Shown in pieces: positions 2,055-63,496 of a DNA stretch of 64,000 nt. Source of the DNA: a virus (lineage: Duplodnaviria > Caudoviricetes). The DNA lies in IMG/VR virus record IMGVR_UViG_3300033070_001299, positions 989 to 64,988 of that record. One strand, 5' to 3'. The number at the start of each line of letters is the position of its first letter. Positions within the stretch are counted from its first letter, which is position 1. The notes under the pieces are model-generated. The model saw only the letters and a program-made list of their open reading frames with translations, was not told the DNA's origin and did no database searches. The position numbers and the translations under genes are program-made.

Positions 2055-2106
2055 CGCCGACGCGGAGCCTTCCGACTTGCGCACGGCGCCGCCGTGGCGT
2101 AATCAT
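2055..2106 (+). promoter_or_regulatory. operator-class promoter TTGCGC-17-TAATCA with paired 13-bp operators
   Basis: -35 at 2077, -10 at 2100; CGCCGCCGTGGCG at 2087 and CGCCGACGCGGAG at 2055. Confidence 0.75.
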
Positions 2107-2157
2107 GGGGGACGCGCCCGCCCCGACCAACCCACGCGGGCGCGCGAGGATCCGACC

Positions 2158-2502
2158 ATGACCCCCGAGGAATGCGCGGCCAAGCTGGCCGGCGTCAAGC
2201 CTGCCCAACTGGAGGCCGCCCTGGCCTCCGTGATCGCCGAGATCCTGGACTGGACCAGCAACCCGGAGAACGCCGCCGAGCTGATCGGCCTGGCCTTCGC
2301 TGGCGCCGGCCGGCCCCACGTCGTTGTCGAGGCGCTGGACGCCGACACGTTCAGCATCCACGACCAGCGGCCCGACGGGCTATACGCGGAGGTCGCCTGG
2401 GCGCGCTCGCCGCACCCCGAGGACGACGACGCGGCCTGGATCGTCATCGAGCCCGGCGGCTACAAGGTGGCCGAGCTGGTCTCCATCGGGCGCGAGGGGT
2501 GA
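2158..2502 (+). CDS. hypothetical protein
   Basis: GAGGATCCGACCATG start; stop overlaps the next GTG. Confidence 0.75.
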   Translation: MTPEECAAKLAGVKPAQLEAALASVIAEILDWTSNPENAAELIGLAFAGAGRPHVVVEALDADTFSIHDQRPDGLYAEVAWARSPHPEDDDAAWIVIEPGGYKVAELVSIGREG

Positions 2503-4130
2503 TCGCCGGCCCGCCCGTCCTGTGCGAGCTGTACGCGGGCACCGCGGCGGTCTCGCGCTGGTGCCTCGGCCTGCCCCTGGACCTGGTGTCCTGGCTGGGG
2601 GCGAAGCGCCGCGTCGCTGGTGAGCTGGCCTGCGCGCTCGAGCTCGGCGACCGCCCCACCCTGGGCGGCCTGCTGCTGTGCGACGCCGGGCCCTGGGGCT
2701 GGGTCTGGCCCGCCCTGCTGGACGAGCCCACGCGCGCCGCCGTGGTGGCCGTGCTGCGCCGCTGGGCCAGCACCTGCCCGGCCTGCGAGGGCGCAGCCTC
2801 CGACGGCTGCCCCGTGTGCCAGCGCGCCAGGACGCCGGGCGGCGGGCCGGACGCCTCCGACCTGTGGGCGTGGCTGGCCTCCCAGCCCCCGCGCGCCGAC
2901 CTGGCGGCGCGCGTCTCTCAGCAGCTCTGGCTGCAGGCGCGGTCGGCCTCGGGCGCGGCCATGTGGTGGGACGAGGCACGCTGGTCGCAGGCGGTCGAGG
3001 GCCGCGTGAAGCAGGCCGGCGAGCGCGACAGCGGCTGGAGGAAGGGGCAGAGCGGCGGCCGCCGCGACACCATCGTCGGCCAGCAGGGCGACGGCTCCAA
3101 CAATGGACGGCCGGAGCGCCTGGACGCCTGGCGCATGGGCCACGCCCGCGGCGGGCGCGAGCACGTCATCGGCGAGACCTCGGCCACGCACGACGAGCCG
3201 AAGCAGGATCGTCGCCGCCGCGACGGCACTATCGACGGCTGGCGCATGATGAACAGCGCGGGCCGAGAGTTCGCCGCGGGCCAGAATGGGCCGGGGCCCG
3301 ACGATGGGCGCTGGCTGGCGCAGCACGGCCAGGGCGGCCCCCAGGAGCCGCGGGAGCGGGACACCCTGCGCAGCGCGTCCGAGGGCTGGACCATGTGCGA
3401 CGGCCGCGGCGTGCCCCGCGTCGCCACCGAGAAGGGGCGCGGCGTGCCCAGGCGCGCGCGGGGGATCGTCCGCACCGAGACCCTCGCCGAGCGCGTGGAG
3501 CTGCTGGGGGGCGCGGCGTGGCCGAGCGGCGACCCCGCCTTCGGGGAGCTGATCGCCTCCTGGCTGGTGCTCCAGACGGGCTCGGCGCGCGGCCGCCCGG
3601 TCGAGCTCCAGGACCACGGCTGGCGGACCTACGGCTACGCGCACCTCTCCCGCGGTGCCGTGGCGCGCGGCTTCACCAGCCGCCTCCACCTGCCCCGCGT
3701 CGCCGGCCGCGTGGAGGCCCTGGCCGGCGCGCCATGGCCCAGCACGGCGGTCCTGCACGGCCGCGTCCAGGAGGCGTTCTGGCTGGCGCGCGAGCTGGGG
3801 CCGCGGGCCCGCGTGCTGCTGGACCCGCCCTACCACCGCGACGGCGACCAGGATCGCGACCGCACCGGCTACGGGCAGGACTGCCCGCTGTCCGAGACGC
3901 TCGCCATGGCCGACGAGCTGGCGCGCGCGCGGGCCCGCGTGGTGATCTGCGAGGGCGGCCCGCTGGCCGGCGACCTCGGGCCCGGCTGGCGCAGCTACGA
4001 CCTCACGAGCCGCTACAGCGGCGTGGTGAAGGGCCGCGAGTGGATCACGGTCAACGGGGCGGTCGATCTGAGCCCCGTGGACGTGCGGCCCGAGGACCGG
4101 CGACAGGCGCGGCTCTTCGTCGCTGGCTAA
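2499..4130 (+). CDS. Dam/D12-class-like N6-adenine DNA methyltransferase with large repeat insertion
   Basis: ELYAGTAAV (motif I-like), SWLGAKRR (motif X-like), LLLCD and VLLDPPY (motif IV). Confidence 0.75.
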   Translation: MIAGPPVLCELYAGTAAVSRWCLGLPLDLVSWLGAKRRVAGELACALELGDRPTLGGLLLCDAGPWGWVWPALLDEPTRAAVVAVLRRWASTCPACEGAASDGCPVCQRARTPGGGPDASDLWAWLASQPPRADLAARVSQQLWLQARSASGAAMWWDEARWSQAVEGRVKQAGERDSGWRKGQSGGRRDTIVGQQGDGSNNGRPERLDAWRMGHARGGREHVIGETSATHDEPKQDRRRRDGTIDGWRMMNSAGREFAAGQNGPGPDDGRWLAQHGQGGPQEPRERDTLRSASEGWTMCDGRGVPRVATEKGRGVPRRARGIVRTETLAERVELLGGAAWPSGDPAFGELIASWLVLQTGSARGRPVELQDHGWRTYGYAHLSRGAVARGFTSRLHLPRVAGRVEALAGAPWPSTAVLHGRVQEAFWLARELGPRARVLLDPPYHRDGDQDRDRTGYGQDCPLSETLAMADELARARARVVICEGGPLAGDLGPGWRSYDLTSRYSGVVKGREWITVNGAVDLSPVDVRPEDRRQARLFVAG

Positions 4131-4137
4131 AGAATCT

Positions 4138-4190
4138 CTCCGGGCTGGCGACATTCCGACTTGCGGCCGCGCCATGGCGGCGCTATTGGT
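4138..4190 (+). promoter_or_regulatory. operator-class promoter TTGCGG-17-TATTGG
   Basis: -35 at 4161, -10 at 4184; operators at 4170 and 4138; the ~65-bp block 4137-4203 is nearly identical to 58772-58841. Confidence 0.8.
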
Positions 4191-4211
4191 TGTCCACCTG
4201 GAGCGAATACC

Positions 4212-4394
4212 ATGGCCTACAGCACCGCCAACCTGATCGCCATGATCCGCAAGACCGCCAACTGCCCCGAGCGAGCGATCCTCGACCTCGGCTGGACGCA
4301 GGGCGAGATCGACGCGGCCGTGGCGGGCGGGCTCGTGCGGCGCATCGGTAGCCAGATGGGCCTCGCTACGATCCGCTACCTGCGCGCCGCCTGA
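4212..4394 (+). CDS. small hypothetical protein
   Basis: GGAG RBS and ATG just downstream of the promoter. Confidence 0.7.
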   Translation: MAYSTANLIAMIRKTANCPERAILDLGWTQGEIDAAVAGGLVRRIGSQMGLATIRYLRAA

Positions 4395-6302: not shown

Positions 6303-6331
6303 TGGACCGATCATCCTGCACGGTGTACGCT
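6303..6331 (+). promoter_or_regulatory. operator-less (late-type) promoter TGGACC-17-TACGCT
   Basis: 17-bp spacing; lies ahead of the first structural gene. Confidence 0.5.
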
Positions 6332-6351
6332 GCACCCCTCGGAGGTGCCTC

Positions 6352-9606: not shown

Positions 9607-9658
9607 CGCCGTGGTGGCGATTGCAGCCTTGCGCGCGTCGCCACCGTGGCGTATATGT
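9607..9658 (+). promoter_or_regulatory. operator-class promoter TTGCGC-17-TATATG
   Basis: -35 at 9629, -10 at 9652; operators CGCCACCGTGGCG at 9639 and CGCCGTGGTGGCG at 9607. Confidence 0.8.
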
Positions 9659-11007: not shown

Positions 11008-11036
11008 TTGCGCCATGGCGGCGCCCGCGCTACCCT
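11008..11036 (+). promoter_or_regulatory. promoter TTGCGC-17-TACCCT
   Basis: Exact 17-bp spacing; precedes a 380-nt non-coding stretch. Confidence 0.65.
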
Positions 11037-12844: not shown

Positions 12845-12873
12845 TTGACGCGCGACCATCGCCGACCTACGCT
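12845..12873 (+). promoter_or_regulatory. late-type promoter TTGACG-17-TACGCT
   Basis: Near-consensus sigma70 boxes; three GATC directly upstream (12828, 12835, 12841). Confidence 0.7.
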
Positions 12874-12883
12874 GGCGGCGATC

Positions 12884-14344: not shown

Positions 14345-15499
14345 ATGTCTATCAGCCAGCGCGCCCAGGACGTCCGCGCCCGTCGCCTCCAGGCGCTCAT
14401 CGGCATGCCCGTCCATGCCAACTACCTCGACGACTGCACCACCCTGATCAACAAGGATCCGCAGGCGACGCAGATCACCGAGGTCACCGTAGACACGGTC
14501 ACCAACGGCCACCTGTACGAGCTGGACGTGAACGGCGTCACGATCAGCTACCAGGCCGACGGCGCGACCTCGGCCATCGAGATCGCCGACGGGCTGGAGG
14601 CCGCCGCCAACGGCGACCCCATGGTGTACGGGCAGGTGACCGCCTCGAGCGACGGCGTGGACACGGTCACCTTCACCAGCCAGTACCCGGGCGAGAGCTT
14701 CGTGATCGACGAGCTGGACGCCAAGCTCAGCCAGAGCACCACGCAGCCGGCCGCCGCGGCCGCGCCCGTCGAGTTCGGGCGGCTCATGGTGAGCGGCGGC
14801 TACCAGGACGACGAGGCCAACGAGCTGGGCGTGAAGGCCAAGAGCGCCTTCTTCACGGCGCAGGTGGACAGCTACGTCCTCACCTACGACGACGGCGTGA
14901 TCATCCGCGTCAAGGCCACCGTCGAGGGCGAGGACTACCAGGTCGATTACACCATGGCGACCGACCTGGACACCAGCGGCGCGGCCGTGGTGACCGCCGG
15001 CAACGGGATCATGCCCGCCAACACGATCCTGTTTGCCTACGACGCGGGCACCAACACGCTCTCGCTCACCAGCGAGAAGCCGGGCATGCCCATCAAGACC
15101 TCGGTGAGCTTCGGCCCTGGGCGCGACACCGGCGCCGCGGTGAAGACCAGCAACGCCGGCCGCACCACGGACATCAACCTGGCCGCGGTGGGCTTCTCGG
15201 TCTACACCACGGACGAGGAGATCACCGAGGTCGCGGGCGAGGAGGTGGTGTACCCCGCCAACAGCGGCGTGATCACCTTCAAGAAGGGCGAGATCTGGCT
15301 GGAGTGCGCCGAGACCATCTCGGCCGGCGACCCGGTCTACATCGAGCTGGGCGTCACCGACGACAACGGCAAGCCCTTCAAGGCGACCTCCAGCACCCGC
15401 GTCCGCCTGGACCGCGCGAGCTGGCAGCGCGCCTCCCGCGACAGCAACGCCGACGAGATCGCCGTGGTCTCGCTGGCCGCGCCCCTGAACCGCTCGTAG
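14345..15499 (+). CDS. head decoration/cement protein with two inserted beta domains
   Basis: Between scaffold and capsid; VEFGRLMV and KKGEIWLECAETISAGDPVY cement motifs. Confidence 0.7.
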   Translation: MSISQRAQDVRARRLQALIGMPVHANYLDDCTTLINKDPQATQITEVTVDTVTNGHLYELDVNGVTISYQADGATSAIEIADGLEAAANGDPMVYGQVTASSDGVDTVTFTSQYPGESFVIDELDAKLSQSTTQPAAAAAPVEFGRLMVSGGYQDDEANELGVKAKSAFFTAQVDSYVLTYDDGVIIRVKATVEGEDYQVDYTMATDLDTSGAAVVTAGNGIMPANTILFAYDAGTNTLSLTSEKPGMPIKTSVSFGPGRDTGAAVKTSNAGRTTDINLAAVGFSVYTTDEEITEVAGEEVVYPANSGVITFKKGEIWLECAETISAGDPVYIELGVTDDNGKPFKATSSTRVRLDRASWQRASRDSNADEIAVVSLAAPLNRS

Positions 15500-15545
15500 C
15501 GCCCGCCGGGCGCACCCCGCACCCCTCTCGACACCGGAGCTCCCC

Positions 15546-16724
15546 ATGCGCGGCCTCGCAGTCCTCCTCGTCGCCAGTGCCCTCGGCAACTCGGCCAACT
15601 TCGGCGATCCCGTCGGCTTCGGCCAGCGGTTCGACAACGAGCTGACCCGGCTGGTCTCCGGCCGGGCCGGCGCGAATCCCATGGCCCAGGCGCGGCTCGA
15701 GGCGCACGCGCGGCGCTTCGACAGCATCGTGGCGGACCTGCGCACCTCCAACCCGGAGGCGGCCCGCCGCGTGGACAGCGCCTGGCAGGTGGCGCGGGCG
15801 GGCAGCCGGCGCGACGCGGGGGGCGCGGCGAGCGCCAGCGCCGGGTTCCACTTCGCGCGCCAGCTCGAGCACATCTACGCGGACGTGCTGCGCGAGGACT
15901 TCCCCACGCCCAACGCCTGGGACCTGTTCCCCATCGACTCGACCGTGCCCGTGGGCGCGCGGACGCACACCGTCCGCCGCATCTACAGCGAGGGCGACGC
16001 GGCCGTGTACCGGGGCGGCCAGACCAAGATCCCGCGCGTCCAGCTCAGCCAGAAGGAGGAGCAGTTCCCCGTCCGGCACTACGTAACGAGCTTCGTGTAC
16101 AGCCTCTTCGAGCAGCTCTCCAGCGCCTTCGCCAACACGGCCCTGGTCGCCGAGCTCCTGCGCGTCGCTCGCGACGTGCTGATGGAATTCGCCAACCAGA
16201 AGGTATGGTACGGCGACCCCGACAACGGGATCTACGGGGTGCTCAACTACAAGTGGCTCCCCAAGAAGATCGTCGCCACGCCGTTCGACGGAACCGCCAG
16301 CCCCGACGACGTGATCGCCGCGCTGAACGCTCTCGGCAACTTCCCCGCCGAGCGCAGCAAGAGCCGGATGCGGCCGGACACCTTCGTCACCTCGACGCGG
16401 GTGAAGAACTACCTGATGAACACGCCGCGGTCGTCCAACACGGACACCACCATCGGGCGGTTCTGGCTGGACAACAACAGCCTCGGGATCAAGCAGATCC
16501 AGGACGCATGGGAGCTCCAGGGCAAGGGGCCGGGCGGCACGGACGGCGCGCTGTTCTACCGGCGCGACCGCCTGGGGATCTGCAACGTGGTCGTGCAGAA
16601 CTTCACGACCCTCCCGGTGCAGTCCCTGGGCTTCGAGGACACGACCTTCGCCTACATGTCGCACGGCGGCGTGATCATGCGGGACGTGGGCAACAACATC
16701 CTCGGCTGGGTCAACGCCGGCTGA
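15546..16724 (+). CDS. major capsid protein (DUF2184 family, HK97 fold)
   Basis: FARQLEHIYADV, LFPIDSTVP.GA, NQKVWYGD..GIYGVLN, LPVQ..G....GGV. Confidence 0.9.
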   Translation: MRGLAVLLVASALGNSANFGDPVGFGQRFDNELTRLVSGRAGANPMAQARLEAHARRFDSIVADLRTSNPEAARRVDSAWQVARAGSRRDAGGAASASAGFHFARQLEHIYADVLREDFPTPNAWDLFPIDSTVPVGARTHTVRRIYSEGDAAVYRGGQTKIPRVQLSQKEEQFPVRHYVTSFVYSLFEQLSSAFANTALVAELLRVARDVLMEFANQKVWYGDPDNGIYGVLNYKWLPKKIVATPFDGTASPDDVIAALNALGNFPAERSKSRMRPDTFVTSTRVKNYLMNTPRSSNTDTTIGRFWLDNNSLGIKQIQDAWELQGKGPGGTDGALFYRRDRLGICNVVVQNFTTLPVQSLGFEDTTFAYMSHGGVIMRDVGNNILGWVNAG

Positions 16725-16749
16725 TCGGGGCGCCCAGCGCCGCGACGAC

Positions 16750-16780
16750 ACGCCCGCCGCCCCGGCGGGCGTTGTGCTTT
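16750..16780 (+). terminator. intrinsic terminator after capsid gene
   Basis: ACGCCCGCCG-CCC-CGGCGGGCGT 10-bp stem followed by TGTGCTTT. Confidence 0.6.
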
Positions 16781-16800
16781 CCAGGCCGGGGCGCTACAGT
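16772..16800 (+). promoter_or_regulatory. late-type promoter TTGTGC-17-TACAGT
   Basis: Overlaps the terminator tail; restarts transcription for neck/tail genes. Confidence 0.55.
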
Positions 16801-16819
16801 GGGCGCGGAGGCTCCGACC

Positions 16820-25180: not shown

Positions 25181-25182
25181 CC

Positions 25183-25860: not shown

Positions 25861-25889
25861 TTGCGGATTACGCCACCGTGGCGTAATCA
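25861..25889 (+). promoter_or_regulatory. operator-class promoter TTGCGG-17-TAATCA containing a perfect 21-bp palindrome
   Basis: ATTACGCCAC-C-GTGGCGTAAT at 25867-25887. Confidence 0.8.
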
Positions 25890-32619: not shown

Positions 32620-32670
32620 CTCCGCGTCGGCGTCTGATCGCTTGCGCGTCGCGCCGTGGTGGCGTAGGTT
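32620..32670 (+). promoter_or_regulatory. operator-class promoter TTGCGC-17-TAGGTT
   Basis: Operators at 32652 and 32620. Confidence 0.75.
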
Positions 32671-34806: not shown

Positions 34807-34857
34807 CGCCGCGCTGGCGCCGCTGGACTTGCGAGCGGCGCCGCGCTGGCGTAAACT
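34807..34857 (+). promoter_or_regulatory. operator-class promoter TTGCGA-17-TAAACT with two identical operators
   Basis: CGCCGCGCTGGCG at both 34807 and 34839. Confidence 0.8.
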
Positions 34858-34882: not shown

Positions 34883-35317
34883 ATGATCCACGACCCCACG
34901 ATCCCCGTCTCGGAGGTGGTGCGCGTCCGCCTGCTGGCCCTGATCGCGCGCGCGGGCACCAGCCCCACCGCGGTCTCGACCGGGATCGGCAAGACGCACA
35001 GCTACCTCGCGCGCAAGCTCGGCCCCCCCAGCGCCTCGGACGTGCGCCCGCTCACGACCGCCGACCTGGACGAGGTGCTGGCCTACCTCGGCCTGCCCGC
35101 CTCCGCGCTGCTCGAGCCCGTGCTCTGGCCCGGCGACCGCGAGTTGCTGGGCTGGATCGCCAGCCAGCCCGAGGTCGGCCGCACCGTGCGCGCCGCCGGC
35201 CGCGCCTACCCCGGCGCGAAGCGCGCCCTGGAGCGGCTCGCCGAGCAGCTCCTGGTCGACGAGCGCGACGAGATCCTTCACCTGACCGACGGCGGCCGCG
35301 CCTGCGCGGCGGCCTGA
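34883..35317 (+). CDS. XRE/Cro-like HTH regulator with C-terminal winged-helix-like part
   Basis: SPTAVSTGIGKTHSYLARKL...LTTADLDEVLAYLGL. Confidence 0.65.
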   Translation: MIHDPTIPVSEVVRVRLLALIARAGTSPTAVSTGIGKTHSYLARKLGPPSASDVRPLTTADLDEVLAYLGLPASALLEPVLWPGDRELLGWIASQPEVGRTVRAAGRAYPGAKRALERLAEQLLVDERDEILHLTDGGRACAAA

Positions 35318-36453: not shown

Positions 36454-37751
36454 TGAGGATCGCCCACGCCTCCGACCTCCACGTCACCGAGGGGCCGCGG
36501 CTGGCCGATCAGGCCGAGACGCTCTCGGGCATGGTCGACGCCATGCTCGAGGCCCGCCCCGATCTGGTACTGCTCACCGGGGACTTCTACGGGCGGACGG
36601 TGCCGCACCGCTCCAGCCCGCTTGAGCGGGCCGTGCTGTTCCCCGCCGTGGTCCGGCTGGCGGGCGTCGCGCCCGTCGTCGTGGTCTACGGCAACCACGA
36701 CCACGACCCCGACCTGGACGCCCTGGAGCACCTCGGCGGCGAGTGGCCGGTGATCGTGGTGAAGACCGCCCGCGTGGTCGAGGTGCCCACCCCGGCCGGC
36801 GTCGCGCACGTCTACGCGATCCCCTACCCGAGCAAGCGCTGGCTGCTGGCGGGCGAGGACGCCCCGCGCGGGCTGGCGGAGAGCCAGCGCCTCGTCGGAG
36901 ATCGCCTGGGCGCGCTGGTCGGCCTGTGGGCGCACCGGATCCGCCGCCGCCGCGCCACCGCGCCGGCCGAGGTCCACGTCCTGGCCGCGCACCTCCAGGT
37001 CGCGGGCTCGAGCACGGCCGGCGGCGAGGTGCTGGCCGGCCAGGAGATCGAGCTTACCCCGGCGCAGCTCGACGGCCTGCCCGTGGACTACGGCGCGCTG
37101 GGCCACCTGCACCTCCGCCAGGAGCCCGCGCTGCGTTGCTGGTATCCGGGCAGCCCCTGGAGGAACGACTACGGCGAGGTCGATCCCAAGGGCTGGCACC
37201 TCGTAGAGGTCATGGCGGGCACAACGGCGCATCGTGCCGACGTCAACCTTGGCGCTGAGGAGGCGTTCTACCCCGGCGGCGCTGCGCATGGTCGACACCC
37301 TGCTCGCGTCCAGCGCCGCGCCACGCGCTGCAGGGACTTCCTGACCCTGGACTGGCGCTGGGCGGCCGACCATGAGGACGGGGCGCCGCGCTGGATCACG
37401 CGCCCCAGCGACGCGGACCTGACCGCCGCGGCCGGCGCCGAGGTGCGCGCGCGGCTGGTCGTGCCCGAGCAGTGGGTAGCCGGCTGCCCCTGGGCGGACG
37501 AGCTGGGCCGGCTGGCGCTCGCGGGCGCCCACCGCGTCCAGGCCGAGAAGAAGATCGAGCCCACCCTGCGCGTCCGCGCGCCCGAGGTGGCCGCCGCACC
37601 GAACCACCGCGAGGAGCTGCTGGCCTACTGGAGCACGCTCGCCACACAGCCCGACGCGCTGGAGCAGCAGGCGGCGCTCGACCTGCTGGCCGAGATGGAG
37701 GCCGGCGACGACGAGGCCCTGACCGTGGAGACGCGCGCCGCGCTGGCGTGA
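36453..37751 (+). CDS. sbcD: SbcD/Mre11-like metallophosphoesterase nuclease
   Basis: HASDLH, LTGDFY, YGNHD, AAH, ALGHLH, YPGSP. Confidence 0.9.
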   Translation: MRIAHASDLHVTEGPRLADQAETLSGMVDAMLEARPDLVLLTGDFYGRTVPHRSSPLERAVLFPAVVRLAGVAPVVVVYGNHDHDPDLDALEHLGGEWPVIVVKTARVVEVPTPAGVAHVYAIPYPSKRWLLAGEDAPRGLAESQRLVGDRLGALVGLWAHRIRRRRATAPAEVHVLAAHLQVAGSSTAGGEVLAGQEIELTPAQLDGLPVDYGALGHLHLRQEPALRCWYPGSPWRNDYGEVDPKGWHLVEVMAGTTAHRADVNLGAEEAFYPGGAAHGRHPARVQRRATRCRDFLTLDWRWAADHEDGAPRWITRPSDADLTAAAGAEVRARLVVPEQWVAGCPWADELGRLALAGAHRVQAEKKIEPTLRVRAPEVAAAPNHREELLAYWSTLATQPDALEQQAALDLLAEMEAGDDEALTVETRAALA

Positions 37752-37786
37752 TTGCGCTTGCGATTTGCGCCGCCGTGGCGTATACG
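37736..37786 (+). promoter_or_regulatory. operator-class promoter TTGCGA-17-TATACG
   Basis: Operators at 37768 and 37736, both perfect. Confidence 0.75.
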
Positions 37787-40653: not shown

Positions 40654-40661
40654 GAGGCTCC

Positions 40662-40874
40662 ATGCGCACTGGACATGTCGAGGATCTTGAAGAGGGCGAC
40701 GCCTGCCCGGCCTGCGAGGAGGGCTCGCTGGAACTCGTGCAGGGGCGCGACTGTTCCTGCCACATGAACCCGCCTTGCAGCTCCTGCGTCGAGGACTGCC
40801 TGAAGTGCGACGGGTGCGGCTGGCGCAGCGGCGACGGCTGGCCCGAGGCTGCCAGTCCCGAGGCCGCGCCATGA
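40662..40874 (+). CDS. small Cys-rich Zn-binding protein
   Basis: CPAC, CSCH..PPCSSC, CDGCGW; GGAGG RBS. Confidence 0.7.
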   Translation: MRTGHVEDLEEGDACPACEEGSLELVQGRDCSCHMNPPCSSCVEDCLKCDGCGWRSGDGWPEAASPEAAP

Positions 40875-41110
40875 GAGCGCCGCCGCGCAGCCTCCTGTTG
40901 ACCGTCCTGCTGCTGGGGCGCGACGTGGTGCGCGCCCGCACCGGCTGGCCGCCGGGCGGCCAGGGCGGCGGCGTGCTGCCCCCCAGCGCAGTCCCCCGGC
41001 GCGTCCTCCAGCCGCCCGGCCCCCTCGTGCTGGGGGCCCCGCCGTCGGCGTCCTGCACCTGGCCCGACTGCTGCTGCCCCTTCGGGCCGCGCTGCGGGAG
41101 CCCGGAGTGA
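40871..41110 (+). CDS. hypothetical protein
   Basis: ATGA overlap with the upstream gene; Pro-rich. Confidence 0.4.
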   Translation: MRAPPRSLLLTVLLLGRDVVRARTGWPPGGQGGGVLPPSAVPRRVLQPPGPLVLGAPPSASCTWPDCCCPFGPRCGSPE

Positions 41111-41112
41111 GT

Positions 41113-41146
41113 GGGGCCGCACCCCCCGACCAGCGGGTGCGGCCCC
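41113..41146. terminator. perfect 12-bp hairpin, possible terminator
   Basis: GGGGCCGCACCC-10 nt-GGGTGCGGCCCC just after the stop; no U-tract. Confidence 0.45.
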
Positions 41147-41229
41147 GGAACAGGAGCGGTGATCCGATCTGCACCACCGGGGCCGGCGACCAAACCGACC
41201 CCAGCCCCCAGAAGGTAGCGGATCACGAC

Positions 41230-41258
41230 TTGCACCGCAAGCCAGCGCAGAGCATAGT
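41230..41258 (+). promoter_or_regulatory. promoter TTGCAC-17-CATAGT for the replication operon
   Basis: GACTTGC -35 context shared with other promoters; no operator. Confidence 0.45.
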
Positions 41259-41300
41259 CCAGCCTACCGACCACCCCGACCCCGTGAAGGATCCCCGCGC

Positions 41301-43336: not shown

Positions 43337-43338
43337 CC

Positions 43339-44058
43339 ATGCAGGACCACCGCCTCTCCCCCGAGCAGCTCCGCGACGCCGCGCTCTCGCGCGTCCCCCT
43401 CCGCTTCCAGCTCCGCGAGCCCGGCCACCCGGCCGACGGCGCCGTGCTGCTGGGCCTCGTGCTCCACGAGGCGACCGTGCCCGCCCGCGGCGACCGGCCC
43501 GAGCGGCGCGGCTGGCTGATCCTGCTCCACGCCCCGCCGCCCAACGGGCGCGGCCCGACCACGCTGGTCGCGCTGCCCGGCACGCTGCGCCCCATTGAGG
43601 CGGAGCCGGCGCCGCGCGTGCTGCCGGTCTTCGGGCCCGATCCCCTCGCCGCGCTGCCCCAGCCCGGCCACCCGCTCCGGCTGGCCGAGGCGATGCTGGT
43701 CTACGCCCGCCTCGGCAAGCTGGTCGGGATCGACTACGGCGAGCCCCGCCCGGTGCCCAGGCCGGCGGGGCGCGACGCCCTGGACATCGCCAAGCTCGGC
43801 CTGTTCCGCGAGGCGACGCAGGACGCCCTCCAGGAGTGCCGCCGCCTGATCCGCCCCCTGGCCGTGGTGGACGGCCTGCTGCACGCCATGGACTACCCAA
43901 ACAGCGATCCGGCGGCCGAGCCCCGCTGGCGCAGCTTCACGCTCGCCAAGGTGGCGGCGCCGCGCTGGGGCGCGACCAGCGGCCTCCCGGCCTGGGCCGA
44001 GGGCGAGGGCTACGTGGACGCCGAGCCGCCGCCAGCGGCGCCCCAGGCCGCGCAGTGA
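43339..44058 (+). CDS. WYL-like domain protein
   Basis: LVGIDY...RRLIRPLAV..LLHA.D....WRSFTLAKV follows the WYL pattern. Confidence 0.55.
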   Translation: MQDHRLSPEQLRDAALSRVPLRFQLREPGHPADGAVLLGLVLHEATVPARGDRPERRGWLILLHAPPPNGRGPTTLVALPGTLRPIEAEPAPRVLPVFGPDPLAALPQPGHPLRLAEAMLVYARLGKLVGIDYGEPRPVPRPAGRDALDIAKLGLFREATQDALQECRRLIRPLAVVDGLLHAMDYPNSDPAAEPRWRSFTLAKVAAPRWGATSGLPAWAEGEGYVDAEPPPAAPQAAQ

Positions 44059-44984
44059 GCGCCGTCCATCCCGGCCTCCGCGTCCATCTGTTCGGCGAGC
44101 GGCCGCGGCTGCTGCCGGACTTCTGGTCCGGCGAGCTGATCCTGGCCCTGACCTTCAAGCAGCCCTTCGGGAGCTGCATCTGCCCGGGGCCGAAGCGCGC
44201 CGAGAACCGCGACTGGTCGCCGTGGCGCGCCCTGCAGCGCCGGCCATTCTGGATCGCGATCCACGCTGGGGCGGGCTGGTACGCGGGCGTCGAGCGCCAC
44301 GACCTCACCCTGCCCCGCTTCGCCTTCGAGGACGAGCCCGCTGGCGCTGGGGGACCGCCTCTGTGGGCCGCGGCGCCGGCCTTCGCCGACATGCCACCAC
44401 GGGCCTTCCTCGGCGCCGCTCGCGTGGTGGGCGTGGCCGAGGTCCCCGACGACGGCGAGCTGTGCCCCGACCCCTGGGCCTTCGGCCCCTGGGCGTGGGT
44501 GCTGGACCCCGCCGTCGTCGTCCTGCCCACCCCGATCCCCTGGGCCGGCGGCGGCCGCGGCCTCTGGCCCGTGCCCCCCGCTGTGCTCGAGGAGCTGCGC
44601 CGCGCCCGCGGGGACGCGCGCTGCCTCGTCCGCCACCCCTCGCCCCTGCTGGAGCACGCCTTGAAGATGCCCGACCTTGAGATCCCCACCCTGGAGCAGC
44701 TCTTCGGGGCGCCGCTCCCCAACCAGGCCGAGCAGCGCGCCGCGGTGCGCGCCCTGGACACGCTGGAGGCGGCCGACCGCGTGCTGCTCTGCCCCGACCT
44801 GCCGACCACGGTGCGCGCGGCCGCCGAGGGCCAGCAGCGCGTCCTCGCCGAGCTCCAGGCCGTCGCCGGCCAGGACCAGCGCCTGCGCGGGCTGCTGGTC
44901 GAGCAGCGCGTCGCCAGCCGGCCGGGCGCCGTGCGGCTCTGCAAGCGGCTGATCAACGCGATCCGGGCTGGAGGTGCGCCATGA
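44055..44984 (+). CDS. ASCH/PUA-like domain protein
   Basis: ALTFKQPFGSCI...KRAENRDW..IAIHAG, FLGAARVV, GPWAWVL. Confidence 0.7.
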   Translation: MSAVHPGLRVHLFGERPRLLPDFWSGELILALTFKQPFGSCICPGPKRAENRDWSPWRALQRRPFWIAIHAGAGWYAGVERHDLTLPRFAFEDEPAGAGGPPLWAAAPAFADMPPRAFLGAARVVGVAEVPDDGELCPDPWAFGPWAWVLDPAVVVLPTPIPWAGGGRGLWPVPPAVLEELRRARGDARCLVRHPSPLLEHALKMPDLEIPTLEQLFGAPLPNQAEQRAAVRALDTLEAADRVLLCPDLPTTVRAAAEGQQRVLAELQAVAGQDQRLRGLLVEQRVASRPGAVRLCKRLINAIRAGGAP

Positions 44985-48833: not shown

Positions 48834-49576
48834 GCGCCACCGGGATCGGGGAGGGCGGCTACCTGGCCGGCGCCGCCTACATGACCCCGCTCGGCCTGAC
48901 ACGGCCGCTCGTGGCCCTGCTGCCCTTCCTCGCGCTGCCCCAGGTGGTGCTCGAGTGCAGCGTGGGCGGCGGCGCGTGGGTGCGCGCCGTGCTGGAGCGC
49001 GAGGGCCGGGAGCGCGTCTTCCACCGCTACCTCGCCGTCGACATCGACCCCGCCGCGGCTGGGCTGGCCCTCGTGAGCGAGGAGGGCGGCGAGGCCGTGG
49101 TGGGCGACTTCCTGGACCCCGCGCTGCGCCTCTCGCGCCGGCCGACGGTCGTACTCGGCAACCCGCCATTCGGCGAGGTGCTGCCCGAGCAGGACTGCGT
49201 CCAGTGTGGCGGGCGTGGGCGACGGGCCACGCGCGGCGGCGGGGAGCGCCCGTGCGGCCGCTGCCGGTCCACCGGCCGGATCATACCGAAGCCGCGCCCC
49301 GTCGCGCAGAAGCACGTCGAGCGCGCGCTGGAGGTGGTGGCGCGCGGCGGCCACGTCGTACTCCTGCTCCGGCTCGCCATGATCGCCGGCCAGGAGCGCC
49401 TCGACTTCTGGCGCGCGCACCCCGCGCGCCACATCTGGGTCATAGCCGACCGACCGGACTTCACAGGCGAAGGCGGCGACTCCGCCGACTACGCCCTCTT
49501 CTGGTGGGACCTCGGCTACACAGGCCCCACCACCATCGAGCCCGTCTACACAGGATCCCGCGCGCGCCGCGGGTAG
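48830..49576 (+). CDS. N6-adenine DNA methyltransferase (NPPF type) with inserted Zn finger
   Basis: YMTP, LECSVGGG, VDIDP, GDFL, VLGNPPF, then CVQCGGRG..CGRCRSTG. Confidence 0.8.
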   Translation: MSATGIGEGGYLAGAAYMTPLGLTRPLVALLPFLALPQVVLECSVGGGAWVRAVLEREGRERVFHRYLAVDIDPAAAGLALVSEEGGEAVVGDFLDPALRLSRRPTVVLGNPPFGEVLPEQDCVQCGGRGRRATRGGGERPCGRCRSTGRIIPKPRPVAQKHVERALEVVARGGHVVLLLRLAMIAGQERLDFWRAHPARHIWVIADRPDFTGEGGDSADYALFWWDLGYTGPTTIEPVYTGSRARRG

Positions 49577-49602
49577 CGCGAGCGCCAGACCGGCGCTACA
49601 AC
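49574..49602 (+). promoter_or_regulatory. operator-class promoter TAGCGC-17-TACAAC
   Basis: CGCCAGACCGGCG at 49583 in the same register as 4170 and 58805. Confidence 0.55.
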
Positions 49603-50816: not shown

Positions 50817-51839
50817 GTGCTGCCGATCTTCGACGCGCTTCCGCCCTACATGGGCGGAAAGCGCCGGCTGCTGGGGAACATCTTTCGAGACCTCCCGTCC
50901 CCCGTCGACGCGCCGGTCCTGGCGGACGCCTTCCTGGGGGGCGGGAGCGTCTCGCTCTACGCCAAGGTGCGCGGCTACCGCGTGCTCTGCAACGACCTCG
51001 GCGAGCGGAGCGTGATCGTGGGCCGCGCCCTGATCGCCAACGAGGGCGTCCGCCTGGACGCGGCCGACGAGCTGCGCCTGTTCGACCCGCCCGCCGACCG
51101 CTCGCGGTGGGTAGAGCAGCGCCTGGCGCCCGACGTGGTCACCCCGCCGCACGCGGCGTTCCTGTGCGGCGCGATGGAGGTGGCCCGCCGAACCCCGGGC
51201 GAGCGCGGCTGGCTGCTCCGCCTGCTGTGCGTGCGCTACCTCCTCGATCAGCGCCCGATGCGCAACTTCGGCGCGAAGACCTACGTCCACCGCGTCGCGG
51301 CGGAGGACTGGGATCGGCTGAACATGACCGGATCCTACGCGGGCTTCGTGCGCCGCATGGGCCTCACGCACCCGCGGGCGCTGGTCGCCGAGCTGGCGGA
51401 GAAGATCAACCGCGGCGTGTTCGCCACCGGCCAGCAGCACGAGGCCGTCCAGGGCGACGCGGTCGCCTTCCTGCGTGCGTGCGGGGCCGACGTCGCCGTG
51501 CTGGACCCGCCCTACGCGGGGACCACGGGCTACGAGACGGCCCTGCGCCCCCTCGACGAGATGCTGCTGGGCGGCCCCGTGGCCCCCGAGGCGTCCGTGT
51601 TCTCGCGCAAGGACAGCCGCGACCAGCTCCTGGAGCTGCTGGACGCCGCCGAGGCCGTGCCCGTGGTCGTGCTCACCTACGGCGGCCCCGTCTTCGACCT
51701 GGCCGCGCTGGAGGCCATGCTGGGCCGCACGCGGCGGCGCGTCGTGAGCCAGTCCGTGGTCTACGGACACCTGCGCGCCCTGTCCACCGAGCAGCAGGCC
51801 GCGCAGAACCGAGAGCTGATCCTCGTGGGCTGGAGGTAG
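50817..51839 (+). CDS. Dam/D12-class N6-adenine DNA methyltransferase
   Basis: PYMGGKRRL, DAFLGGGSV, CNDL, VLDPPY. Confidence 0.9.
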   Translation: MLPIFDALPPYMGGKRRLLGNIFRDLPSPVDAPVLADAFLGGGSVSLYAKVRGYRVLCNDLGERSVIVGRALIANEGVRLDAADELRLFDPPADRSRWVEQRLAPDVVTPPHAAFLCGAMEVARRTPGERGWLLRLLCVRYLLDQRPMRNFGAKTYVHRVAAEDWDRLNMTGSYAGFVRRMGLTHPRALVAELAEKINRGVFATGQQHEAVQGDAVAFLRACGADVAVLDPPYAGTTGYETALRPLDEMLLGGPVAPEASVFSRKDSRDQLLELLDAAEAVPVVVLTYGGPVFDLAALEAMLGRTRRRVVSQSVVYGHLRALSTEQQAAQNRELILVGWR

Positions 51840-51841
51840 CC

Positions 51842-52534
51842 GTGGGCGACGCCGTGCTGCAGGTGGTGGACATCGACTGCGGGCTCCTGGACCCGAACCC
51901 GTGGAACCCCAACCGCATGTCGGCCCGCACCCGGGCCAAGCTGCTCGCCTACCTGCGCGATCAGGGGCTGGTCGCGCCGCTCGTGGTGCGCCCCCACCCG
52001 ACGGCGCCGGGGCGCTACCAGATCCTCAACGGCGAGCATCGCTGGCGCGTGTGGAAGGACGACCTGGGCCGGCCGGTGATCCCGTGCTCGGTCGTCCACG
52101 TCGACGACAGGGCGGCCAGGATCATCACGATCAACCTCAACGAGCTGTCCGGCGAGCCCGTGCCCCACCTGCTGGCCGGGCTGCTCGAGGAGCTCGCGCG
52201 CGAGGCCCCGCCCCGCGAGCTGGCCGGGATCCTCCCCTACGACGAGGCCGAGCTGATGGACCGGATCGAGCTGGGGCGCGCCCTGCCCCTGCTGGAGCAG
52301 CGCGTGGAGGCCGAGCAGCGCGCCCAGCACGGGGCCGCGCCCGTCCAGGTCGCCGTCATGGTGCCCGCCGAGCACGCGGCGGTCGTGGAGGCTGCGCTGG
52401 CGCGCGCCGCCGCCAGCCTGCCCGGCGGCAAGAACAGCCGGGGCCGCGCCTTCGCGCTGGTGTGCGAGGCGTACATGGCCGCGCCCGCCGCGCCGCCGCC
52501 CGAGATTCGCCGCGACGGCGCAGAAGCGACTTGA
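51842..52534 (+). CDS. ParB/Srx-like nuclease domain protein
   Basis: PNPWNPN.M, GLVAPLVVR, YQILNGEHRW, TINLN.L.G. Confidence 0.85.
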   Translation: MGDAVLQVVDIDCGLLDPNPWNPNRMSARTRAKLLAYLRDQGLVAPLVVRPHPTAPGRYQILNGEHRWRVWKDDLGRPVIPCSVVHVDDRAARIITINLNELSGEPVPHLLAGLLEELAREAPPRELAGILPYDEAELMDRIELGRALPLLEQRVEAEQRAQHGAAPVQVAVMVPAEHAAVVEAALARAAASLPGGKNSRGRAFALVCEAYMAAPAAPPPEIRRDGAEAT

Positions 52535-52559
52535 TCCGGCGCCGCGCTGGTGCTACGAC
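52508..52559 (+). promoter_or_regulatory. operator-class promoter TTGATC-17-TACGAC
   Basis: Operators CGCCGCGCTGGTG at 52540 and CGCCGCGACGGCG at 52508. Confidence 0.65.
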
Positions 52560-57036: not shown

Positions 57037-58769
57037 TCCCCGCCCCGATCCCCACGCACGGAACCCTCGTCCACCGCGCCGGTTGGTGGCTGATCGCCGC
57101 CGAGCCCCATGCCCTGATGCGGCTGCGCCGCTGGGTTGGACGGCTGGACGCCGACGAGCACGACCAGCTCCGCCTCCGCCGCTCGCCCGAGGTGGACAGG
57201 GACCTCCAGTGCTTCCTCGACCGCTTCCCCCTGGAGATGAGCGCAGGCGACGCGCGCCTGCTGCACATGGGCGCCGAGGCGCACCGGGCCATGGGCCGCA
57301 CCGTCGCCGCCGTGGCGGCCGGCACCTTCGTCGCGCGGGCCTTCGATCTGGCCGTCCCACCCCGGGACTACCAGCGGATCGCCGCCGACCTCTGGCTGCA
57401 CGTCCGCGCCATGATCCTCGGCGACGACATGGGCCTGGGGAAGACCGCCACGGCCATCGCCGGCCTGTCCGACCCCGCCACGAGGCCCGCGCTCGTCGTC
57501 ACCCTGACCCACCTGCCCGAGCAGTGGCGGCGGGAGATCGACCGCTTCTGCCCTGGGATGCGGATCTTGATCCTGGACGGGACCAAGCCCTACGACGTGG
57601 CCGAAGCCTGGGCGCGCCAGGAGACGCGGCGCACCGGGCGCAGGGTCGCGCCGGCCTTCCCCGACGTGCTGATCACGACCTACCACCGGATCGCCGGCTG
57701 GGCGGAGGCGCTGGCGCCCAAGCTCCGCGGGCTGGTCTACGACGAGGTCCAGGAGCTGCGCCACAACGACACGGCGAAGTACAAGGCCGCCGCGCACCTC
57801 TCCGCCGGGGCCACCTACCGGATCGGGCTGTCCGCCACGCCGATCCACAACTACGGCGGGGAGTTCTTCAACGTGGTCGAGGCCGTGCGCCCCGGCGCGC
57901 TGGGCAGCCGCGAGGAATTCGTCCGCGAGTGGTGCGTGAGCGGCGAGGAGGAGCGGAAGACCAGGGTGCGCGATACCCGGGCCTTCGGCCTGTACCTGCG
58001 CGAGAGCGGGATCATGCTGCGCCGGACGCGCAAGGAGGTCGGGCGCGAGCTGCCCCCCCTGACCGTGGTGCCCCACCACATCGAGGCGGACCTGGCCGCG
58101 CTGGACCGCGTCGCGGGCTCGGCGGCCGAGCTGGCGCGGATCATCATCGGCCAGCGGACCAGCAACTTCGACCGCATGAAGGCCAGCGGGGACCTCGACC
58201 GCCTCATGCGCCAGGCGACCGGGATCGCGAAGGCGCCATACATCGCGGACTTCGTGCAGATGCTGGTCGAGAGCGGCGAGCGCCCCGTGGTGTACCTCTG
58301 GCACCGCGAGGTCTACGCCATCGTCCAGGCGAAGCTCCGGGAGCTCAAGCCGTCCATGTTCACGGGCTCGGAGAGCACCGTGGCGAAGCGGGAGAACCTC
58401 CGCCGCTTCACCAGCGGCGAGACGCCCGTGCTGCTGATGAGCCTGCGATCCGGCGCGGGCGTGGACGGCCTCCAGCACGCCAGCCGGACGGTCGTGATCG
58501 GCGAGCTGGACTGGAGCCCCGTGGTCCACGATCAGGCCATCGGCCGCGTCGACCGCGACGGCCAGCCCGACAAGGTGGTGGCCTACTACCTGCTGGCCGA
58601 CGTGGGCAGCGACCCCACCGTGGCCGACGCCTGCGGGGCCAAGGCGGCGCAGAGCGGCACGATCCGCGACCCCCGGCGCGAGCTGGTCTCGATCCCCCAG
58701 GTGGACCCCGGCCGCGTGCGCCAGCTCGCCGAGGCGTTCCTGGCGTCGCGCGCTGGGCGCCGCCGCTGA
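57033..58769 (+). CDS. SNF2-family helicase
   Basis: LGDDMGLGKT, YDEVQ, LSATP, GAGVDGLQ, QAIGRVDRDGQ. Confidence 0.9.
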   Translation: MIPAPIPTHGTLVHRAGWWLIAAEPHALMRLRRWVGRLDADEHDQLRLRRSPEVDRDLQCFLDRFPLEMSAGDARLLHMGAEAHRAMGRTVAAVAAGTFVARAFDLAVPPRDYQRIAADLWLHVRAMILGDDMGLGKTATAIAGLSDPATRPALVVTLTHLPEQWRREIDRFCPGMRILILDGTKPYDVAEAWARQETRRTGRRVAPAFPDVLITTYHRIAGWAEALAPKLRGLVYDEVQELRHNDTAKYKAAAHLSAGATYRIGLSATPIHNYGGEFFNVVEAVRPGALGSREEFVREWCVSGEEERKTRVRDTRAFGLYLRESGIMLRRTRKEVGRELPPLTVVPHHIEADLAALDRVAGSAAELARIIIGQRTSNFDRMKASGDLDRLMRQATGIAKAPYIADFVQMLVESGERPVVYLWHREVYAIVQAKLRELKPSMFTGSESTVAKRENLRRFTSGETPVLLMSLRSGAGVDGLQHASRTVVIGELDWSPVVHDQAIGRVDRDGQPDKVVAYYLLADVGSDPTVADACGAKAAQSGTIRDPRRELVSIPQVDPGRVRQLAEAFLASRAGRRR

Positions 58770-58772
58770 TTT

Positions 58773-58825
58773 CTCCGGGCTGGCGACGTTCCGACTTGCA
58801 ACCGCGCCACGCTGGCGCTATTGGT
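58773..58825 (+). promoter_or_regulatory. operator-class promoter TTGCAA-17-TATTGG
   Basis: Operators at 58805 and 58773; near-duplicate of the 4137-4203 block. Confidence 0.8.
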
Positions 58826-58847
58826 TGGTCGTTACCTGGAGCCGCCC

Positions 58848-59144
58848 GTGCCCTACTCGAACGCAACCACCCCCGCCCTCGAAACCCACGCACAGATCCG
58901 GGCCGCCTGCGAGCAGCTCGAGCAGCACCTGGGCGCCGAGGCCACCGAGGAGGCGCGCGGCGAAGTGGCCTTCCCCCTCTTCGAGGGCGCGCCGTCCTGG
59001 TGCAGCCTGACCCTGCACCACGGCCGCGTCTACTACGCCGAGCTCCGCCGGCTGGCGTCCTCGCGAGAGGCCGGCGAGCGCCTGGCCGTCTACCACACGC
59101 AAGGGATCGCGGCCTTCCGCGCCCTCCCGCCCCGCCAGTTCTGA
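58848..59144 (+). CDS. small hypothetical protein
   Basis: GGAG RBS + GTG downstream of the promoter. Confidence 0.6.
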   Translation: MPYSNATTPALETHAQIRAACEQLEQHLGAEATEEARGEVAFPLFEGAPSWCSLTLHHGRVYYAELRRLASSREAGERLAVYHTQGIAAFRALPPRQF

Positions 59145-61917: not shown

Positions 61918-63437
61918 CGCTCGCTGGGGCCGACGGGCCGGCGATCCGGGAGGCAGCGCGCGAGGAGGCGGCGCTGCACGTCTACTCGTGGTTCTTCCGC
62001 CGGGCCTGGCGGGAGGTCGAGCAAAACCGGCCGCTGCTGCACAACTGGCACCTCGACCTCGTGGCCGACGAGCTCGACGGCGTGATCGCTGGCCGCGTGC
62101 GCGAGCTGGTGATCTGCATGCCCCCGGGCACGGCGAAGTCCATGCTGGTGTCCGCGCTGCTCATGCCCTACGCCTGGCTGCGCCGGCCGGAGTGGCGCGT
62201 GCTCTGCACGGCGAAGGACCCCACCGTCGTCGCGCGCGACAGCCTGCGCATGAGGACGCTCCTGCGGACGCCCTGGTATCAGGGCCGCGTCGCCGAGCTG
62301 GTCGAGCGCGGGGAGGTTCAGCCCTGGGGCCTCTCGCCTGAGATGCAGGAGCGCATGAACTTCACGAACAGCGCGGGCGGACAGCGCATGTGCCGCTCGA
62401 TCTGGGGCGGGATCACCGGCCACCGCTTCGACGGGCTGATTGTAGACGACCCCTACGACGCCAAGCAGGTGCTCCCCGGCGTCGCCACCCCAGCGCAGAT
62501 CGCCGAGCGCATGGCTGCGGGCGTCTCGATCTACGACAACACGCTGGACAGCCGCGTAGAACCGAAGCACGGATGGAAGATCACGATCATGCAGCGCCTC
62601 GCCGAGGGCGACCTGGCCGGCGAGCTGATCAAGCGCGGCGTGCGGGCCGTGGTGCTGCCCATGGAGCACGACCCGCTCCTGCCCGCGTCGCACCGCCACC
62701 CGCGCGACCCCCGGCGCCGGCCGGGCGAGCTGCTGATCCCCGGCCGCTACGACCGGGCGTGGTGCGACGCACGCAAGCACAAGCCGGGCTTCGGGCGCAC
62801 CTGGGCGGCGCAGTACCAGCAGCACCCCGCGCCTGTGGGCGGGACGCGGTTTAAACGCGAGTGGTTCCAGCGCCGATACCAGGGCGACCCGATCCGCTTC
62901 GCCCGCGGCCTGGACGAGCTGGCCCTGACCGTGGACTGCGCTTTCAAGGACAGCTCGGAGAGCGACTACGTCGTGATCCAGTGCTGGGGCAGGAAGGGAA
63001 CCAACCGCTACCTGCTCGACCAGGTGCGCGGGCAGATGGACCTCCCGGCCACCATCGTCGCGCTCAAGGGCATGGCGGCGAAGTGGCCCCAGGCCCGCCT
63101 CAAGCTGATCGAGGAGAAGGCCAACGGCCCGGCGCTGATCCAGCTCCTGCGCGGGCAGGTGCCCGGCCTGATCGCCTTCAACCCCCAGGCCAGCAAGGAG
63201 GCCCGCGCGCAGATCTCGGCCATCGCCTATGAGGCCGGCGAGGTCTGGCTGCCCGAGGTGCAGTGGGCGCCCTGGCTGCTCGACTTCATCGAGGAGCACG
63301 TTCAATTCCCGCTCGGGGCGAATGACGATCAGGTGGACGCTGAGAGCCAGCTCTTCATCCGGTGGGACGCGGCCGAGCCCGACGCGCTGGAGCGCACCAG
63401 GGCCCAGGCCGGCGGCCTCGCGCCCCCGCGGCGTTGA
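61914..63437 (+). CDS. terL: terminase large subunit
   Basis: ICMPPGTAKS, ITG..FDGLIVDDP, IMQRL..DL, TVDCAFK, IEEKANG, DDQVDA. Confidence 0.92.
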   Translation: MTLAGADGPAIREAAREEAALHVYSWFFRRAWREVEQNRPLLHNWHLDLVADELDGVIAGRVRELVICMPPGTAKSMLVSALLMPYAWLRRPEWRVLCTAKDPTVVARDSLRMRTLLRTPWYQGRVAELVERGEVQPWGLSPEMQERMNFTNSAGGQRMCRSIWGGITGHRFDGLIVDDPYDAKQVLPGVATPAQIAERMAAGVSIYDNTLDSRVEPKHGWKITIMQRLAEGDLAGELIKRGVRAVVLPMEHDPLLPASHRHPRDPRRRPGELLIPGRYDRAWCDARKHKPGFGRTWAAQYQQHPAPVGGTRFKREWFQRRYQGDPIRFARGLDELALTVDCAFKDSSESDYVVIQCWGRKGTNRYLLDQVRGQMDLPATIVALKGMAAKWPQARLKLIEEKANGPALIQLLRGQVPGLIAFNPQASKEARAQISAIAYEAGEVWLPEVQWAPWLLDFIEEHVQFPLGANDDQVDAESQLFIRWDAAEPDALERTRAQAGGLAPPRR

Positions 63438-63444
63438 CGAAATG

Positions 63445-63496
63445 CGACGCTGGGGCGCCTATCGACTTGCGTATTACGCCACCATGGCGTAATGGT
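63445..63496 (+). promoter_or_regulatory. operator-class promoter TTGCGT-17-TAATGG
   Basis: ATTACGCCAC-C-ATGGCGTAAT at 63473-63493; upstream copy at 63445. Confidence 0.8.

Follow-up and report, generated by a model that had tools for sequence, protein, structure and literature searches.

Several described systems place short two-fold symmetric operators within promoters or scatter operators over a phage genome. In the temperate phages lambda (cI/Cro), P22 (Arc at Pant) and 434, and with controller (C) proteins of restriction-modification systems such as C.Esp1396I, a short dyad lies over the -35/-10 region, the binder is a dimeric helix-turn-helix (HTH) protein, neighbouring dimers cooperate, and the regulator controls its own promoter. 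Dispersed operator sets are known from P1, with its C1 operators, and from phiC31, with its conserved inverted repeats. In L5, Bxb1 and TipsytheTRex, operators or stoperators are dispersed over the genome, and the TipsytheTRex repressor has two DNA-binding domains; the stoperators are asymmetric 13-mers bound by a monomer in an orientation-dependent manner, lie outside promoters and stop elongation (PMC9283540). In the T4-type phages RB49 and phi1, promoter-early stem-loop (PeSL) cassettes carry a stem-loop that is most often located in the -35/-10 spacer; their promoters match the E. coli sigma70 consensus with AT-rich DNA upstream, and the stem-loops are effective terminators (PMC2839356). 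Here, a repeated promoter-operator unit is described in an uncultured phage of 74% GC, together with its candidate regulator, the protein encoded at 34883-35317. The window, that is, the whole stretch of 64,000 nucleotides analysed, comprises bases 989-64988 of the 64,988-bp IMG/VR virus record IMGVR_UViG_3300033070_001299 and thus nearly the whole phage.

The unit consists of a -35 element TTGCG(N), a constant 17-bp spacer and a -10 element TA(NNNN). Inside the spacer, the palindrome CGCCRNNNYGGCG (CGCCR-N3-YGGCG), with 0-1 mismatch, begins 9 or 10 bp past the start of the -35 and abuts the -10. Aligned on the -35, the full arrangement runs as CGCCRNNNYGGCG, 9 nt usually ending in cGAC, TTGCG, 4 or 5 nt, CGCCRNNNYGGCG and (C)TAnnnn. 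The -35 and the upstream cGAC are highly conserved among the units. All eleven promoter sites proposed in an earlier reading made without database searches (the sequence-only reading) are present at the coordinates it gave; nine are strong, the site at 52531 is weaker and the site at 49574 is doubtful. Two registers are observed. In register a (n=7 sites), the palindrome starts 10 bp after the -35 start and is followed by GTA, and in register b (n=4 sites), it starts 9 bp after the -35 start and is followed by GCTA. Every unit begins 0-38 bp from the stop codon upstream, and roughly 18-100 bp separate its end from the next start codon. The description of these promoters as sigma70-like holds only in a loose, high-GC sense, as TAnnnT fits at 3 of the 11 sites and a scan for E. 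coli-type sigma70 promoters detects none.

A second palindrome exactly 32 bp upstream had been claimed for nine sites. Eight carry it at 0-1 mismatch (2055, 4138, 9607, 32620, 34807, 37736, 52508 and 58773), but the copy at 63445 has 2 mismatches, slightly worse than claimed; at 25861 and 49574 the upstream copy is absent, as had been stated. The 32 bp amount to about three helical turns, placing both operators on the same DNA face. The distance from the upstream operator to the -35 is 22 bp for register a, against 23 bp for register b. The operator pair therefore keeps its 32 bp while its register to the hexamers slips by 1 bp, which indicates that the pair behaves as one unit. This joint slide, combined with a third register at 11008, argues for the palindrome as a module in its own right, more than promoter spacer sequence alone.

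The enrichment of the paired motif over shuffled sequence, which the sequence-only reading had put forward as a check, is clear: the window holds 8 pairs at 32 bp (at most 1 mismatch each), against a mean of 0.2 and a maximum of 3 in 200 shuffles, and no other distance from 13 to 80 bp gives more than 4. Exact palindromes number 35, compared with 7.1 +/- 2.9 in dinucleotide shuffles. A composite regular expression of -35, palindrome and -10 yields 7-9 matches on the + strand and 0 on the - strand, compared with 0.004 per shuffle (1000 shuffles), and all matches fall in gene gaps on the coding strand. Non-coding DNA, 4.9% of the window, contains 16 of the 35 exact palindromes. The 19 within coding sequence (10.8 +/- 3.4 under codon permutation), two of which are upstream operators, are not taken as above expectation. 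The strong copies of the palindrome all lie within promoter units. The promoter-unit pattern is real, and the observation is confirmed.

The units, one further operator-bearing promoter and the candidate regulator gene are located as follows.

2055..2105, + strand: unit 1, with an operator at 2055-2067 (1 mismatch), -35 at 2077-2082, spacer operator at 2087-2099 and -10 at 2100-2105; it heads genes 2158 and 2499.
4138..4189, + strand: unit 2, in register b (GCTA), with an operator at 4138-4150, -35 at 4161-4166, spacer operator at 4170-4182 and -10 at 4184-4189; it heads genes 4212 and 4434.
9607..9657, + strand: unit 3, with operators at 9607-9619 and 9639-9651, both exact, and -35 at 9629; it heads gene 9698, just past the portal gene.
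11008..11036, + strand: a twelfth operator-bearing promoter, with an operator at 11011-11023 that overlaps the -35 TTGCGC, a 17-bp spacer and TACCCT; no upstream copy.
25861..25889, + strand: unit 4, with a single operator at 25871-25883, whose 10-bp arms (25866-25888) take in the -10 TAAT; it heads the lipoprotein-like gene 25992, between tail genes.
32620..32670, + strand: unit 5, with operators at 32620-32632 (1 mismatch) and 32652-32664; it heads gene 32710, at a junction where a unit is also present in the relative.
34807..34857, + strand: unit 6, whose operators, at 34807 and 34839, are both exact and have the same sequence, CGCCGCGCTGGCG; it heads the candidate regulator gene.
34883..35317, + strand: candidate regulator gene, 144 aa, with a predicted N-terminal XRE-type HTH and a predicted C-terminal winged helix.
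37736..37786, + strand: unit 7, with operators at 37736-37748 (within the end of the Mre11-like gene) and 37768-37780; it heads the SbcC/Rad50-like gene, and a unit occupies this junction in the relative as well.
49574..49602, + strand: doubtful member, with -35 TAGCGC, an operator at 49583-49595 followed by CTACAA, and no upstream copy; its leave-one-out position weight matrix score is -19.
52508..52559, + strand: unit 9, weaker, in register b, with operators at 52508-52520 (exact) and 52540-52552 (1 mismatch) and -35 TTGATC at 52531.
58773..58824, + strand: unit 10, in register b, with operators at 58773-58785 (1 mismatch) and 58805-58817; it heads gene 58848 and the PAPS-reductase-like and Mom-like genes.
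63445..63495, + strand: unit 11, with operators at 63445-63457 (2 mismatches) and 63477-63489 (9-bp arms); it lies behind the large terminase gene, at a junction with a unit in the relative too, and heads the DUF7666 repeat gene.

Unit 6 is the only unit with two operators that are both identical and exact. The promoter at 11008 contains the same 15-mer as unit 2 (4169-4183), placed in a different register. As to the genes behind the units, it had been claimed that each site heads a cassette of non-structural genes and that several are wedged into the morphogenesis region. The units do head non-structural operons, and two of them (9629 past the portal gene, 25861 among the tail genes) lie in the structural block. 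The term genome-wide is fair for the non-structural operons, but promoters of the head, tail and replication regions lack the operator. Operator-free promoters precede head/capsid genes (12845, 16780) and also occur in the replication region (41229); promoter-like sites of this class are seen at 12845-12880, 16780-16810, 41229-41260 and 6305-6340, and include TTGACG-17-TACGCT and TTGTGC-17-TACAGT, the latter directly after a strong terminator.

Arms were compared among 29 palindrome copies (28 distinct rows), taken from this phage and from its relative. Among 140 cells there are 0 compensatory changes; arm positions either stay constant or change in a single arm, and the departures are uncompensated and break pairing. 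At 25871 and 63477 the arms lengthen to 9-10 bp. As RNA, the palindromes would form stems of 4-5 bp (about -5 to -10 kcal/mol with flanks) with no U tract, and a scan of 25000-44900 reveals no terminator-like site. A genuine terminator, whose stem is long and which has a T run, is located elsewhere in the same genome at ~16740-16775. The invariant arms, the lack of covariation, the short stems and the absence of terminators from the scanned region favour sequence-specific recognition by a protein. The comparison of copies thus supports the palindrome as a predicted protein-binding module, separate from the promoter hexamers.

The best candidate for the binder is the protein encoded behind unit 6. 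An HTH pattern in its N-terminal half is conserved among homologues, and its AlphaFold2 (AF2) model, with a predicted local distance difference test (pLDDT) score of 86, displays two domains. In Foldseek, every one of the best matches, though weak, is a transcription regulator; the N-terminal domain matches C.BclI, C.Esp1396I, ClgR and 434, and the C-terminal domain the MarR-type MexR and MepR. A full HMMER search gathers a family of 119 clusters at 50% identity, whose members match HTH_31, HTH_26, HTH_3, Xre-like-HTH and MarR_2, and whose profile matches DtxR/MarR winged helices and XRE proteins in the PDB. An 80%-identical homologue (P0003) is encoded on a 61.9-kb contig. The 34883 protein is the only recognisable HTH protein common to the phage and the relative, and the relative's homologue also lies behind a (weak) motif promoter. 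On its model and family matches, the protein is a credible DNA-binding regulator of the HTH and winged-helix type.

Comparison with other viral genomes separates the spacer operator from its upstream copy. A promoter-pattern scan of IMG/VR returns 51 loci, all of which were rejected as chance matches except one (L038) in a real relative, a 26,995-bp contig. The relative is also present on three contigs (C37, C84 and C11; ~67 kb in total) of a metagenome bin labelled uncultured Schumannella sp., and homologues of 38 of the 76 window proteins are found in it at 26-68% identity. It contains 7-8 promoters of the form TTGCR-nnCCG-CGCCGnnnTGGCG-TAnnnT, with canonical TAnnnT -10 boxes. Four of them occupy matching junctions: before the homologues of 32710 and 34883 (a weak copy), before the SbcC-like gene, and after the large terminase gene. 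That the operator is kept in intergenic DNA despite such divergence points to selection. The expected conservation in related phages therefore holds for the spacer operator, but the 32-bp pairing is not kept in the single relative available, which suggests that the spacer operator is the core and the copy 32 bp upstream a lineage-specific addition. A scan of IMG/VR for paired operators gives 4 chance matches with no proteins in common, and the pair occurs in no other IMG/VR contig.

Beyond this relative, a DNA search against isolated phages gives no match, and the portal protein is 26-30% identical to portals of isolated phages, e.g. Klebsiella and Pantoea phages; IMG/VR peptide-pattern searches with the portal protein and with P0006 find no relatives. 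L023 (~6473, minus strand) and L045 (~10165, minus strand), two high-GC viral contigs that are unrelated, have one promoter-like site each with TACGCCA-N3-TGGCGTA in a TTGCG...TA frame. This extended dyad has the same form as those at 25871 and 63477, and may be due to chance or represent a wider operator type. An equivalent repeated promoter motif was considered in a distant relative (G003) and dropped, only coding repeats and a repeated ribosome-binding-site context being found there. In that genome (L071/L072; e.g. 1430, 4346, 4816, 9153 and 10559), the translation-start context AACCGGAGACCACCATG is repeated at least 8 times. In the closer relative (G002, contigs C37 and C11), the terminase genes and the SNF2 cassette are opposite in strand to their neighbours, so the one-strand gene order of the phage is not conserved.

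From these data, a phage-encoded dimeric HTH protein probably represses dispersed accessory and DNA-metabolism operons through operators embedded in promoters for the host RNA polymerase. We infer that the promoters are active and that the 34883 protein binds them, represses them and sets the timing of their operons. A promoter role is backed by the location of the sites in gene gaps, by their orientation, by the unvarying 17-bp spacer and by the relative's canonical TAnnnT. The units would be high-GC host-RNA-polymerase promoters (TTGCG, 17-bp spacer, TA) with a built-in operator of 13-15 bp. A dimer would occupy each palindrome; at the spacer site, whose centre is close to -20 and which in its extended copies reaches over the -10, it would block RNA polymerase. 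Repressors classically act from a position near -20 within a 17-bp spacer, the optimal length, as for P22 Arc at Pant and in LacI-type and TetR-type designs. The second dimer, near -52 and three turns away on the same face, would bind cooperatively, with the -35 clamped between the two. The accessory, DNA-modification and recombination operons, along with the regulator's own operon, would be shut down or throttled together, and the operator-free promoters would drive the head, tail and replication genes. With the two best operators at its own promoter, the 34883 protein may also exert negative autoregulation. The sequence-only reading had already proposed a dimeric regulator on two same-face sites flanking the -35, switching an early or host-takeover regulon; the modular palindrome, the rigid 32 bp, the joint slide, the invariant arms and the conservation give that proposal partial support, for the predicted binding module and not for an early or host-takeover role. 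Since no integrase or lysogeny module is found, a role in timing or shut-off during lytic growth is more likely than prophage immunity. A broader version, tentative and as a whole unlikely, would treat the twin-operator unit as a portable cassette under an uncharacterised XRE-HTH/winged-helix family, acting as master timer of a non-integrating, host-replisome-dependent phage and also seeding the insertion of accessory genes into the structural block.

Several observations weigh against repression by the 34883 protein. The Foldseek/PDB matches of the candidate are weak (E 0.07-0.4; best profile match 4e-4), and the relative has no regular copy 32 bp upstream. In the distant relative (G003/L057), the 34883 protein has a homologue but the motif is missing. 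The -10 hexamers are poor (TAnnnT at 3/11), which could mean that the promoters need activation. Finally, the candidate is 40% identical between the two phages though the operator arms are identical, which fits a conserved host factor better than the co-evolution typical of a phage repressor and its operator. The palindrome could accordingly be bound by a host transcription factor, by which the phage would tie its accessory operons to a host signal. The identity of the arms in two phages whose proteins, the candidate regulator included, have diverged to ~40-60% identity, and the single similar extended sites in L023 and L045, are in line with this, yet such a factor appears quite unlikely. In the 2.9-Mb bin that holds the relative, no composite site lies off the phage contigs, and the 15-mer palindrome is not enriched (88 vs 67 for the control). 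Among 400 genomes of the bin's order, the composite occurs at chance level, with 4 single matches, no more than for a control pattern. These results speak for a phage-specific system, although the bin is a weak guide to the host, its three phage contigs being purely viral.

A distinctly improbable explanation is that the units are PeSL-like cassettes, whose stem-loops, as RNA or single-stranded DNA, would attenuate read-through out of the gene upstream and whose repeats would mainly serve as recombination points for cassette shuffling. The likeness is considerable: the units are repeated and intergenic, head small accessory genes, and follow the order of stop codon, -35, spacer dyad, -10, Shine-Dalgarno sequence and start codon reported for the commonest RB49/phi1 PeSL class (PMC2839356). 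Some units lie at junctions where relatives differ, as at unit 4, which holds different inserted genes in the phage and the relative; in this single relative, one junction (25861) has different genes and four are conserved. Units 2/10 and 1/11 are also near-duplicates with their leaders included. However, the stems here are short and invariant, 4-5 bp with no U tract, the computational scan of 25000-44900 detects no terminator, and the real terminator at ~16740-16775 looks different. There is no covariation, variants break pairing, and a hairpin gives no role to the second copy at its fixed 32-bp phasing. Unlike at PeSLs, no E. coli-consensus promoters are found, and the DNA upstream, rich in GC, includes the second operator. 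An activator or sigma-appropriating factor, in which case the weak -10 boxes would need a protein, the -52 operator would be a class I activator site and the regulon would be switched on, is very improbable. It would explain why the -10 hexamers are poor while the -35 with its cGAC is so well kept, and why only this phage, in which the -10 boxes are weaker, has the upstream copy, the relative combining canonical TAnnnT with no such copy. Against it, a site near -20 in a 17-bp spacer is sterically incompatible with RNA polymerase, and the exception, activators of the MerR type, needs spacers of 19-20 bp; this type was rejected, the spacer being 17 bp at all sites. A sigma-54 reading of TGGCG...TTGC was likewise discarded by inspection, the GG-to-GC spacing being 14 and not 10. 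Neither ClgR (CGC-N5-GCG) nor LexA boxes fit the palindrome.

The near-duplicate units share more than their operators. Units 1 and 11 (2040-2165 and 63430-63535) have in common a hairpin-like leader GGGACGCGCCC...GGGCGC, and units 2 and 10 (4125-4220 and 58760-58855) have in common GCTATTGGTTG...CCTGGAGC; the proteins downstream of the two pairs are not paralogous. Behind unit 4, gene 25992-26492 encodes a lipoprotein-type signal (LLATC lipobox). At this junction the relative (L068 ~15330-16570, minus strand of C11) has a different, opposite-strand gene that also begins with a lipobox, and both genes look like moron-type insertions.

The GC content is 70-80% all along the window, and ~76 genes, all on the + strand, were mapped on the basis of GC at third codon positions (GC3). 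The structural block is myovirus-like by Pfam (Mu F-like, DUF2213, cement protein, major capsid, tape measure, baseplate J and terminase), the DUF2213 domain protein being read as the prohead protease. Among the non-structural proteins are a DpdA-like protein, an Mre11-like phosphoesterase, an SbcC/Rad50-like ATPase, a DnaC/IstB-like loader, a DnaQ-like exonuclease and an SNF2 helicase, as well as a DUF5131 protein, D12 and C5 DNA methyltransferases, a ParB_N domain protein, and PAPS-reductase-like and Mom-like proteins. Pfam/PHROG scans of nearly all non-structural genes reveal no RNA polymerase, sigma factor or integrase, and no lysogeny module was found in the phage by such scans. On the minus strand, a tRNA-Thr was called at 35297-35389 over coding sequence and is regarded as spurious. 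What the record labels a 'direct terminal repeat' comprises 27-54 bp of a coding tandem repeat with 27-bp units in the DUF7666 gene (window 63526-64000 plus genome bases 1-300, the latter outside the window), which codes a 9-residue unit of the Gly-Gln-Ala-Ser-Ala-Thr-Gly type. As the record ends fall within this repeat, the assembly is circular, and since the circle is closed inside it, the repeat copy number may be collapsed.

The window also shows a skewed use of tetranucleotides. CTAG is wholly missing (0 vs ~98 expected under a first-order Markov model), and GATC is in excess (573 vs 234), TGATC more so (155 vs 34); TGATC spans the stop codon in 20 of the 76 genes. A D12 (Dam-like) methyltransferase is encoded at 50817-51839. 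The GATC excess is also present in the relative (572 vs 355).

For an uncultured 65-kb phage whose genes are mostly annotated without function, the units provide an operon map of about eleven putatively co-regulated units. They set accessory, DNA-modification and recombination genes (DpdA-, Mom-, PAPS-reductase- and Mre11/SbcC-like) apart from those for structure and replication. The analysis singles out one small protein and a DNA fragment of 51 bp, which, if confirmed, would be a compact repressor/operator pair for high-GC hosts. The modest points of interest are the rigid 32-bp twin arrangement and the uncharacterised family of two-domain regulators. As in the classical phage operators and C proteins, a two-fold symmetric site overlaps the -35/-10 region, and C proteins and 434 are among the candidate's fold matches. 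Unlike in them, where one or two control regions carry the sites, the unit recurs some eleven times round the genome, its paired sites flank the -35 with 32 bp between them, the candidate carries a winged-helix domain besides its HTH, and no integrase or lysogeny module accompanies it in the scans. With the dispersed operator sets the phage shares many sites over the whole genome for one phage regulator, the binder here being predicted. The sites differ from the cluster A stoperators in being palindromic and tied to promoters, and copies inside genes do not exceed the codon-permuted expectation. By analogy, the arrangement is best described as the operator logic of the classical core promoter, multiplied round the genome as in the dispersed sets, a principle that is already known.

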